Shown here: one piece after another, positions 16,803 to 19,656 of the stretch
Layout: every line of letters begins with the position of its first letter
Position numbering within the stretch: the first letter of the stretch is position 1
Notes under the pieces: generated by a model
The model's database searches: none
Told to the model about the DNA's origin: nothing
The model's input: the letters and a program-made list of their open reading frames with translations, nothing else
Source: an uncultured Lachnospiraceae bacterium
Lineage (GTDB): Bacteria > Bacillota > Clostridia > Oscillospirales > CAG-272
DNA: 43,897 bases
Assembly (NCBI GenBank): GCA_964472845.1
Contig: CAYYND010000003.1
Location: 1-43,897 of the forward strand
Direction: 5' to 3'
Made by a program: the position numbers and the translations under genes

Positions 16803-17975
16803 TTAGAAATAACTTACCTTGATGCGTTTTCCCATCTTTCTGAGGCAACTCGAAAGCTCCTCTACCAAATTCATCTTTATGTTAAAATTTATAGGAAGAT
16901 CGGGGTTCTGGTGAGCAGGATTTACCGCTCTTCCAACATAGAAATTGATGTCCGTTGCCTCTTCAAACAAAAGTCGGCTTATAAGGGACGCACCGTCTTT
17001 TTTAAAATTCCAATCCTCGTAGAGGTCGTTCTCTCCGAGATAATCTTTTGCATATTGAATTACCTTGTTCATTGTAATTACGCCTTCCGTTACAAGATCT
17101 ACACCCTCGATATATGCTATCGGAGGTACATCGCTGCGCTCAAAATTCAAGCTCGCCTTTACGGGCTTGCCGAGATATTTTGCCGCAATAGATGACGTTG
17201 TACCGCCGCACACGATATGCTTGCCTTCTTTTGAGAAGAAAAGTGACATCATTCTGGTCGCGTCGTCCCGGTTTGAGGGGGGACCGAACAAAATATTCAT
17301 GGGTTCTCTCTTGCGTATCTTAATAACACAAGCCGTTGTATCATCGCCCGGTTTGTTTCCGTACAGGTTGTCGCACTCATCCACGAGCATAGTCGAGAGA
17401 TTCTTCGCGGTATATCCGCCCGCCGCAAGCGCCAACATATATTCTGCGATATCCTCGCGCTTCCAACCGAAGTTGTATTTGCCTCCCATTCCGGCATGAG
17501 GGCATCCGTCACTCATGGCTATGAAAACGTCATCCTCTTGCAGGCTGATGGTAGACTTGTATATCTTTTTACCGTCGATGTTCATCTCAGTCTTTGGATA
17601 ATCGTACAGCGCAAAATCTCTGATGATGATAACCTGAGGATTATCGTACTGAATGATCTCGGCTAACTCATTATTCAAAAGATGAATAATCGTGAATGTT
17701 GAATATGCCACGCCTCTTACCGAGCATACGGGAAGCGTTGCGGCAATAGTTGCTACACATTCCTCAATGGGAAGTCCCGCAGCCATCATCGTGGAGATTA
17801 TTTTGGAAGTTAGAGTTGAAAGTATGCTTGCTTTGACTCCCGAACCGAGACCGTCAGCCAATACTATGACGGTGGAGTTCTCGTTTTCTTCAACAACGTC
17901 TACGTGATCACCGCAAAGCTCTTCTCCGAAGTGATTGATGCTTTTGTATCCGATATCTGCACACAGATCATTCAT
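16803..17975 (-). CDS. SpoIIE/PP2C-family serine phosphatase with an uncharacterised C-terminal domain
   Basis: 390 aa. PP2C metal motifs ELCGDHV, LADGLGSGVKA, AMSDG and GDDTTACVI lie within residues 1-210. The remaining roughly 180 aa have no motif I recognise. Its start overlaps the hydS stop by 8 nt. Confidence 0.8.
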   Translation of the reverse strand: MNDLCADIGYKSINHFGEELCGDHVDVVEENENSTVIVLADGLGSGVKASILSTLTSKIISTMMAAGLPIEECVATIAATLPVCSVRGVAYSTFTIIHLLNNELAEIIQYDNPQVIIIRDFALYDYPKTEMNIDGKKIYKSTISLQEDDVFIAMSDGCPHAGMGGKYNFGWKREDIAEYMLALAAGGYTAKNLSTMLVDECDNLYGNKPGDDTTACVIKIRKREPMNILFGPPSNRDDATRMMSLFFSKEGKHIVCGGTTSSIAAKYLGKPVKASLNFERSDVPPIAYIEGVDLVTEGVITMNKVIQYAKDYLGENDLYEDWNFKKDGASLISRLLFEEATDINFYVGRAVNPAHQNPDLPINFNIKMNLVEELSSCLRKMGKRIKVSYF

Positions 17976-19656
17976 CGTTGATAGACTCCTTTAGCTTGGT
18001 TAAGGCTATCTTGGTCTCAGCCGCCGTTTCTCCGAGCAGGGAAGCGATCTCCTGAACTATCCTCATCTGCTTTTCTACCACGGTATCCGCAACCTCAACA
18101 GTCTTTTGATTGATCCTTGTCTTGTTCTCGCGAGCAGCTTCATCTGCGGTAATGTCACGCATAATTCCGATAAGAAGATGAGATTCGGGATCGTATACGA
18201 CCGTTTGCTCAACATATTTTTTGTATTCCGCAAGATATGCCGTTTGGTTGTTTACGCTTCTTCCGCTGTTTTTGACTTGAACGAATACGGTAGGATCAAG
18301 AATACGAATGACAGGCTCGCCGAGTACATCGGACTCGGCGCGGATGTTCATTATCTTACGCGCCGCCGCGTTTACTTGCTGTACCTCAAGATTTTCATTG
18401 AGTACGATAAGTCCGTTGGGGGTGTTTTTAACTATCGTGTCGGAGAAGCTTTCCGCCTTATCTTTAAGATAGGGCAGACACATGGATATCTCCGCCTTGC
18501 CCTGAATTATCGCGATGGCCTTTTCACGGCAGGAATTGTATCCGCAAGAGCCGCAGTTAAGCTCGTCTGAAGGCTTGAATTTACCCATCTGACGAAGGAC
18601 AGTCATGATCTCATTTTCGGTAGGCTGAGCAAGTCTGTGCTCGATCATCGTCATATGCTTGCGAAGCTCCATCGGTGTAGGCTGTGGTACTTTAAAATCG
18701 CGCTCACCCGCAAAATTTGCAACTGCCATATAATCCTTGACAGGGGACGAGCTGTGATACTTTTCCATAACGGGGCCGCCTATGCAGCTTCCGATGCAAG
18801 CCGACATCTCGATAAAGCATTTGTGAACCTTACCGTTTTCAATATCTTTAAGCGCGGCGATACAGTTGTCAACACCGTCGAGCGCAAGGTAACTGTATCC
18901 CGGAGCATTCTGAGCCATTGTTTTAAGTATACCGCCTGTGGTGGGGAAGAAGCGTGCGCGACTTTCCGGTTTGGGCTCAACTTCTTTTTCAAGCTCTATA
19001 TTCTCGGCTTTTAACATTTTTGTGAGCTCTTCAAATGTAAGAACGGCGTCCACTAAACCATCGTAATATTCAGCCTCATCCTTTTTTGCTACGCAGGGAC
19101 CGATAAAGACAGTCTTGGCGTTTGGTATACGCTTTTTGATGTCTGCGCAGTGTGCTTGCATAGGAGACATAGTATCCGCAAGGTATTCGAGCAATGAGGG
19201 AAAATATTTTTGTATCAACAAGTTTATGGAATGACAGCACGAGCTTATAACTACATCTCTGTCCTCCTCGCGAAGCATACGTTCATACTCCGTTTTAACG
19301 ATAGTGGCACCGATAGCGGTCTCTTCAACATCATAAAATCCGAGTTTTTGAAGCCCGCGGCGCATAGCTTGGATTCCGACGCCTTCGTAATTTGCAATAA
19401 ACGACGGCGCCAAACTGACAATAACGGGATCTCCGCTTTGAAGGAGCACTCTTACCTTTTCCGTGCCGTCAACTATTTCCTTTGCGTTTTGGGGACAAAC
19501 GACAAAGCAATGACCGCATAAAATACACTCATTGCCTATGATATGAGCTTGGTTCCCCGAAAAACGTATAGCCTTGACGGGGCAGTAACGGATACATTTA
19601 TAGCAGTTTTTGCAATTTGATTTTTTTAGTGTCAAGCAATTTGCCAATTCCGTCAC
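17968..19656 (-). CDS. hydS: Sensory-type [FeFe]-hydrogenase homologue with C-terminal PAS domain (HydS-like)
   Basis: 562 aa. Two N-terminal CxxCxxCxxxC motifs. A modified H-domain ([28 protein letters not shown]). An extra Cx2Cx4Cx16C motif (C368-C393). A PAS-like region at about residues 403-505. The GTG start overlaps the upstream stop (GTGA). Confidence 0.8.
   Translation of the reverse strand: [562 protein letters not shown]

Follow-up and report, generated by a model that had tools for sequence, protein, structure and literature searches.

We analysed a window of 43,897 nucleotides (nt), the whole stretch of contig CAYYND010000003.1 under study, from an uncultured Lachnospiraceae bacterium (assembly GCA_964472845.1), and in particular its gene hydS. 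The product is best explained as the orthologue of Ruminococcus albus HydS, a phosphatase-linked (group C3) putative H2-sensing [FeFe] hydrogenase for which we infer a signalling mechanism, and we give this reading a probability of roughly three in four. An earlier note on the same DNA had proposed a sensory hydrogenase of group C. Orthology to R. albus HydS, synteny, family features and pairing with a PP2C phosphatase all support a sensory-type group C identity; that the protein is a sensor rather than a catalyst is extended to it from its relatives. The protein type, its motif peculiarities, the PAS domain and the gene cluster are already in the literature, this kind having been known since 2014-2016 and being common in gut Clostridia. 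HydS of the window adds a new member to it, from an uncultured, Oscillospiraceae/Acutalibacteraceae-like species of gut Clostridia.

A tblastn search against plasmids recovered HydS of R. albus 7 (WP_013483411, on pRUMAL01), with 69% identity over 99% of the length. Moreover, nine genes stand in identical order on pRUMAL01 and in the window, namely LysR, Rex, AdhE, phosphotransferase, 2Fe-2S, 2Fe-2S, HydS, PP2C and HydA2. Full-length identity and conserved neighbourhood mark the two proteins as orthologues, as judged by sequence. They also share the CCHS of motif L1, the EMSAC of motif L3, the four-cysteine site, the PAS domain and the tail. The two nevertheless belong to different species, the locus of the window continues with ldh, and the species-representative genomes nearest to the window are 86% identical. 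Zheng et al. (J Bacteriol, 2014) are said to have named the R. albus HydS cluster.

HydDB defines its subgroup C3 as 'phosphatase-linked (putative)', with a co-transcribed Ser/Thr (PP2C) phosphatase. Given the identity to R. albus HydS and the shared nine-gene order, HydS is assigned to C3 as a putative sensory hydrogenase, by the HydDB definition and gene context. Subgroups C1 (histidine kinase-linked) and C2 (chemotaxis-linked) were rejected, as no histidine kinase or MCP domain occurs in HydS or its neighbours, and the HydS tail gave no MCPsignal match even at E ≤10. [FeFe] hydrogenase group D (the TamHydS type) was ruled out, since HydS has a PAS domain. The cysteines of the H-cluster, non-canonical second-sphere residues, a C-terminal cluster site and a PAS domain, by which group C (M2f) is recognised, were all found in HydS. 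A sequence search of the PDB returned no solved group C structure.

The hydS gene, the parts of its product and its partner gene are laid out as follows. Residue numbers are those of the 562-residue HydS; a TTG start, described below, would shift them by -3.

17968..19656, minus strand: hydS open reading frame (ORF), 562 amino acids (aa) from GTG 19656
19483..19626, minus strand: N-terminal F-domain, residues 11-58, Pfam Fer4 dicluster
18772..19428, minus strand: H-domain, residues 77-295, PF02906 Fe_hyd_lg_C, E = 9e-50
19228..19245, minus strand: L1 SSCCHS, residues 138-143, with C140 at the CpI C299 position, C141 equivalent to C300 and H142 at the P301 position
19093..19101, minus strand: L2 GPC, residues 186-188, with G186 at the CpI M353 position
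18784..18810, minus strand: L3 EMSACIGSC, residues 283-291, with S285 at the CpI M497 position
18472..18561, minus strand: C-terminal [4Fe-4S] site Cx2Cx4Cx16C, C368/C371/C376/C393, PF04060 over residues 366-395, E = 8e-11
18151..18441, minus strand: PAS core, residues 406-502, PF00989, 25.8 bits against a gathering cut-off of 22.6
17971..18150, minus strand: C-terminal amphipathic helix, Jα-like, residues 503-562, predicted by AlphaFold2 (AF2)
17989..18081, minus strand: most conserved tail segment, residues 526-556, a near-invariant motif
16803..17975, minus strand: SpoIIE-family PP2C phosphatase, 390 aa (Pfam)

Conservation was counted in an alignment of 116 full-length representative HydS relatives, 33-60% identical. 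In the F-domain, C15/18/21/25 and C44/47/50/54 form two CxxCxxCxxxCP motifs, which provide for two [4Fe-4S] clusters, and these cysteines are near-invariant. The H-cluster ligands C141, C188, C287 and C291 align by HMMER with CpI C300, C355, C499 and C503, and all four are invariant. Moreover, a Foldseek search with the HydS model found that the H-domain resembles CpI, DdH and HydABC. HydS had been described as a paralogue of the neighbouring HydA2 with altered active-site motifs, and so it is: the two are 33% identical over 312 aa (E = 8e-39), and SSCCHS and EMSACIGSC of HydS stand against TSSCCP (at 293) and EGMACIGGC (at 450) in HydA2. A script found each HydS motif at exactly the residues reported for it.

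Active-site equivalences were taken from HMMER alignments to CpI chains, with the numbering checked against C299/C300. Thus CpI E279, E282, R286, C299, C300, P301, S319, Q325, M353 and M497 correspond to HydS T122, E125, R129, C140, C141, H142, A160, M166, G186 and S285, respectively. Alignments to T. maritima HydA and to CpI both put S285 at the M497 position, which bears out the proposed replacement of Met by Ser two residues before the first cysteine of L3. The pocket is sensory-type in that the two Met positions carry Gly (M353) and Ser (M497), and the group A proton-relay residues E279 and S319 have been exchanged. Among the relatives, the M353 position is Gly in 105/116, and the M497 position is most often N (34), S (32), L (19) or M (16).

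The comparison with Thermotoga maritima HydS (TmHydS), the group C enzyme that has been characterised biochemically, draws on its published residues. TmHydS has A131, G177 and S267 at the C299, M353 and M497 positions (PMC10055695), and both proteins therefore have Gly and Ser at the latter two. TmHydS also follows the M2f plan of two F-clusters, H-domain, C-terminal [4Fe-4S] site and PAS domain, as does HydS of the window (PMC10055695, PMC13104023). The Met substitution, extra cluster, PAS domain and low turnover that the earlier note gave for group C agree with this literature, in which TmHydS activity is much lower than that of CpI, yet measurable. The two proteins differ in L1, where A131 of TmHydS is faced by Cys140, with His142 replacing the L1 proline.

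The earlier note had made much of this double cysteine. It is indeed retained, but the weight put on it was the single over-reading of that note. The C299 position is Cys in 41 (35%) of the 116 relatives, Ala in 33 and Ser in 29, and in HydDB group C it is Cys in 17% of sequences (PMC10055695). The double cysteine is thus a common state of the family and no oddity. Because E279 and S319 are replaced, retention of C140 does not restore the group A proton pathway, and C140 alone does not suggest a relay of catalytic type. The neighbouring histidine is rarer. The P301 position is Pro in 99/116 relatives and His in 9/116, mostly the closest relatives of the query, and CCHS occurs in 120/120 HydS homologues of at least 85% identity as well as in R. 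albus and Monoglobus HydS. This exchange of the L1 proline for His142 marks the R. albus-like clade. With its Cys140-Cys141-His142 triad, the clade could tune the H-cluster, or route protons, differently from TmHydS.

Behind the H-domain lies the additional C368-x2-C371-x4-C376-x16-C393 motif, which was located as claimed and matches PF04060; its four cysteines are invariant. In the AF2 model C393, the last cluster ligand, stands one residue ahead of the N-cap helix of the PAS domain (394-411).

The PAS domain was recovered by profile and by structure. Scanned alone, the C-terminal 159 residues of HydS gave a PAS score of 28.7 bits. The full-length AF2 model, built on 116 diverse relatives (mean predicted local distance difference test (pLDDT) 93.9, predicted template modelling score 0.86), orders two strands, helices and three strands between residues 415 and 501 into a five-stranded core, followed by a helix at 503-561. 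A second AF2 model of residues 396-562 alone (pLDDT 93.8) likewise gave a PAS core and then a long helix. Its top 50 PDB matches in Foldseek were all PAS or LOV (probability 1.00, target-normalised TM-score ≤0.77), the longest alignments being to short-LOV proteins and LOV-histidine-kinase chimeras. In such proteins the PAS domain carries an N-cap helix in front and a Jα coiled coil at its C-terminal end. The segment previously called PAS-like (residues 403-505, which a script check confirmed as DNA 18142-18450) is therefore a PAS fold by above-threshold profile score, predicted topology and Foldseek, and the helical tail, put at roughly 55 aa, corresponds to a predicted helix of some 59 residues. 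The refuting condition named in the earlier note, a fold other than PAS, was thus not borne out. D501-I502-T503 closes the PAS domain, with D in 107/116 and T in 103/116 relatives. In PAS sensor kinases the β-sheet is joined and coupled to the Jα coiled coil through this DIT motif.

Mean column conservation is highest in the C-terminal Fe-S site (0.73), followed by tail residues 521-562 (0.66), the H-domain (0.47) and the PAS domain (0.36). In the tail, which tells more than any other part of HydS, G542 of the motif is invariant, and the motif matches no Pfam family. The hydrophobic period of the tail is 3.5-3.6 residues, broken by a polar GETTAETK stretch. In the AF2 model of PAS and tail it forms a single straight helix (pLDDT ≥90), whereas in the full-length monomer it folds into a hairpin with a turn at 538-541 (pLDDT 62-82). 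AF2 thus gives the tail two conformations, as would be expected for a dimerisation or partner-binding element. We rejected the idea that the tail is left over from an MCP signalling domain, or else from an H-box DHp domain, since a Pfam scan of the isolated tail at E ≤10 returned no meaningful match and the tail has no His.

Two further loci bear on the tail. HydS homologues in L083 (Acetoanaerobium noterae, 8992-10698) and L084 (5001-6740) have a fully conserved tail motif and no PP2C gene in the 5-9 kb flanks; genes for DUF2325, RelA/SpoT and HD-domain proteins are among their neighbours. Conservation of the tail therefore extends to loci in which no phosphatase is adjacent. L084 also holds a 107-aa ORF (8442-8765) near the HydS homologue P0267, a near-exact repeat of the P0267 tail beside a run of N. 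It was rejected as an independent tail-motif protein and is most likely an assembly or duplication artefact.

The gene downstream of hydS encodes the phosphatase after which subgroup C3 is named. The hydS 3′ end AACGATGAATGA contains the phosphatase ATG, so that the two genes overlap by 8 nt (ATGAATGA); a Shine-Dalgarno sequence AAGGAG lies within hydS, 10 nt upstream of this ATG. By this layout the two genes are translationally coupled. The metal-site motifs CGD, DGLGSG, SDG and GDD are invariant, and the nearest solved relatives are SpoIIE and RsbX. Five of six distant HydS relatives (33-41% identical) have a 379-392-aa SpoIIE phosphatase immediately downstream, and the hydrogenase near these pairs is of HydABC type, of HydA2 type or absent. 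In the flanks examined, the phosphatase is missing downstream of hydS in one distant representative and in Acetoanaerobium. Moreover, we surveyed 80 related species-representative genomes, mostly metagenome-assembled genomes of ruminant and human gut Clostridia at ≤86% identity, and the core Fdx-Fdx-HydS-PP2C-(Ldh)-HydA2 is present in all 80 loci where the contig extends far enough.

The phosphatase begins directly with its catalytic domain, lacking an N-terminal α-helical linker. Phosphatases of the RsbU and RsbP type have such a linker, by way of which dimerisation switches them on (PMC12143880). Bacillus subtilis RsbP and other phosphatases of the PAS-coiled-coil-PPM kind join a PAS domain through an α-helical linker to a SpoIIE/RsbU-family PPM phosphatase in one signalling unit (PMC12143880), whereas in the window PAS-helix and phosphatase are separate, coupled polypeptides, the phosphatase being linker-less and bearing an extra C-terminal domain. 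The Jα-like coiled-coil end of HydS could act in trans as the linker that RsbP/RsbU-type phosphatases carry in cis. We propose, tentatively and with the odds somewhat against it, that the tail is the output element of HydS and docks PP2C in a split PAS-linker-PPM switch, and that Cys140-Cys141-His142 gives distinct tuning or a distinct proton route. The tail motif and the clade-marking change of the L1 proline to histidine are the less documented features here, and of all leads only two, the conserved tail and a possible split PAS-linker-PPM arrangement, might exceed published work.

The second domain of the phosphatase spans about 170 aa (residues ~225-390; window 16803-17300, minus strand). 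A Pfam scan of it at E ≤10 returned nothing meaningful, and a PDB profile search gave marginal matches only (3k6q and 3trj, SIS-like, E 0.25-0.6). GPP, GGT, PP, VTEG and GxAxNxAH are invariant in it across orthologues 37-79% identical, and the domain is probably ligand- or partner-binding.

Besides the phosphatase gene, the operon-like string around hydS, as read from the layout of the genes, includes those of two 2Fe-2S ferredoxins, a kinase-fold protein, AdhE, Rex and HydA2:

23719-24342, minus strand: rex, which together with adhE heads the tightly packed string
21001-23697, minus strand: adhE
20233..20982, minus strand: APH/RIO-like protein kinase-fold phosphotransferase, 249 aa, at the same position in R. 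albus
19653..20164, minus strand: tandem pair of genes (81 and 87 aa) for thioredoxin-like [2Fe-2S] ferredoxins, PF01257
15361..16791, minus strand: hydA2, encoding a monomeric [FeFe] hydrogenase of ferredoxin type; TIGR04105 scores 578 bits (cut-off 450)

Intergenic gaps in the rex-adhE-kinase part are 18-68 nt. The ferredoxin pair lies immediately upstream of hydS, here and in related loci, and its second gene ends at the hydS start. For hydA2 the mechanical ORF call begins within the PP2C gene, at TTG 16848. The PP2C stop is followed by GGAGG and, 5 nt later, by ATG 16791; this ATG is the likely real start and would give 476 aa, near the 478 aa of R. albus HydA2. On the minus strand, 39 nt after hydA2, lies an L-lactate dehydrogenase-like gene (14380-15321). 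In 10/80 related loci ldh is found between the PP2C gene and hydA2, which makes it a mobile member of this fermentation-switch operon.

The same module is known from Thermoanaerobacterium. In hfsABCD, HfsB is HydS-like, HfsC a PP2C and HfsD HydA2-like, in the same order of sensor, phosphatase and hydrogenase, and there is a shared regulatory link to adhE and ethanol (PMC11837493, PMC5707799). That system differs in coming from a thermophile, in having hfsA upstream and in having neither adhE nor rex in its operon (PMC11837493, PMC5707799). Deletion of hfsB raises adhE expression and hydrogenase activity, a regulatory phenotype (PMC5707799, PMC11837493). In R. albus itself the cluster is co-regulated (PMC6776011); in the work of Greening et al. 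(2019) its expression was 111-fold lower in co-culture, where a syntroph takes up the H2 (PMC6776011; also PMC10838669). The group D protein TamHydS has a sensory-type pocket and a C-terminal [4Fe-4S] site like HydS of the window (PMC13104023). Group D, though, is without a PAS domain and moves protons along a pathway of its own (E252/E289), whereas HydS of the window has a PAS domain and tail.

As an H2 sensor HydS could work as follows. H2 would bind the H-cluster, with slow turnover there, and the redox or conformational state of the H-cluster would pass to the C-terminal cluster domain, the PAS domain and then a dimeric C-terminal helix. This helix would set the activity of PP2C, possibly as an in-trans linker, and PP2C would oppose the co-encoded kinase on a shared phosphoprotein target governing adhE and hydA2 expression. 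At high H2, adhE and hydA2 would be induced and fermentation would shift from acetate and H2 to ethanol.

Several points weigh against this account. H2-dependent signalling is putative for every group C member, and the substrate of PP2C is a postulated phosphoprotein. H2 does not reduce the corresponding C-terminal cluster of TamHydS (PMC13104023), which speaks against a simple redox relay; the signal of HydS may instead be conformational. HydS keeps a C299-equivalent Cys that TmHydS and TamHydS lack, and it may contribute catalytically, given that TmHydS turns over H2 measurably. Lastly, the Rex operator TTGTTAAN4TTAACAA (≤3 mismatches) gave 3 matches against 3.0 expected.

We weighed three other explanations, all of which are less well supported than an H2 sensor. 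First, HydS may report redox poise, that is the ferredoxin/NADH pool, with the 2Fe-2S proteins feeding electrons and the H-cluster serving as an H2/H+ reference electrode. Two dedicated thioredoxin-like 2Fe-2S proteins are conserved upstream of hydS, Rex is in the same operon, and HfsB of Thermoanaerobacterium has been described as responding to redox potential (PMC11837493). However, fermentation and cluster expression in R. albus track the H2 level, partner organism or not (PMC6776011), and a pure redox sensor would need no invariant H-cluster site. We therefore consider a redox sensor unlikely, if the best of the three.

Slightly less probable still is that HydS is a catalytic or electron-transfer subunit of an Hfs-type hydrogenase made up of the 2Fe-2S proteins, HydS and HydA2, its PAS domain and tail serving assembly only. 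Deletion of hfsB should not then increase hydrogenase activity and alter adhE expression, as it does (PMC5707799), nor would one look for a PAS-DIT-Jα architecture, which is typical of signalling proteins. The gene coupling is tight and the two ferredoxins always precede hydS, as such a complex would have it; however, PP2C with intact catalytic residues is a general partner of HydS even without a nearby HydA2 (5/6 distant relatives). The retention of all H-cluster ligands and of the C299-equivalent Cys would suit a catalyst, as would the measurable activity of TmHydS (PMC10055695), but the proton-relay positions E279 and S319 are lost. The first description of hfsABCD as the main hydrogenase of T. 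saccharolyticum (PMC11837493) also stands on the side of a catalytic subunit.

That a small-molecule ligand or cofactor bound by the PAS domain is the real signal, and the hydrogenase part vestigial, is very improbable: PAS domains often bind cofactors and the closest folds in Foldseek include LOV, FixL, NifL and DosP, but no part of HydS is less conserved than the PAS core, which has no conserved His or Cys (near-invariant are only P413, N429 and the D501/T503 linker motif), and the ligands of the H-cluster and Fe-S clusters are invariant.

Gut and rumen Clostridia are rich in group C hydrogenases, which are proposed to decide between H2 plus acetate and ethanol in fermenters, a choice that bears on methane emission and biofuel strain engineering. 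The locus of the window adds one uncultured member to the R. albus-type clusters and leaves this picture unchanged. It offers three testable handles on signalling, namely the tail motif, the DIT-Jα connection and the coupled PP2C with its uncharacterised C-terminal domain.

The start of hydS calls for a minor correction of the ORF call. In the upstream sequence AAAGGAAGTGACGGAATTGGCA a Shine-Dalgarno-like AGGAAG reaches into the GTG, sharing its last G with the start of that codon, and precedes an alternative TTG at 19647 by 8 nt. Given this spacing and the N-terminus MANCLTLKK of most HydS homologues, the true start is probably TTG 19647, giving 559 aa. Metagenome runs that contain the hydS sequence are gut or faecal, and searches of RNA runs for hydS gave trace matches only (0.07-0.10 of sampled words).

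The region upstream of rex (24343-24497, minus strand) contains two palindromes, TTAATCGATA...TATCGATTAA and TTATATCGAT...ACCGATATAA. A weak Rex-box-like site also lies upstream of rex at 24363-24380, with 3 mismatches and not above chance. These palindromes and the Rex-like site are candidate operators for the divergent LysR-type regulator or for Rex. A scan for consensus promoters and terminators did not exceed the shuffled expectation.

Elsewhere in the window, a 365-aa ORF on the plus strand (11502-12599) reads in translation like the catalytic chain of aspartate carbamoyltransferase. Its C-terminal segment bears a zinc-type motif, CxxxxC...CxxC, that resembles one of the regulatory chain PyrI, and its product may be a PyrB-PyrI fusion.

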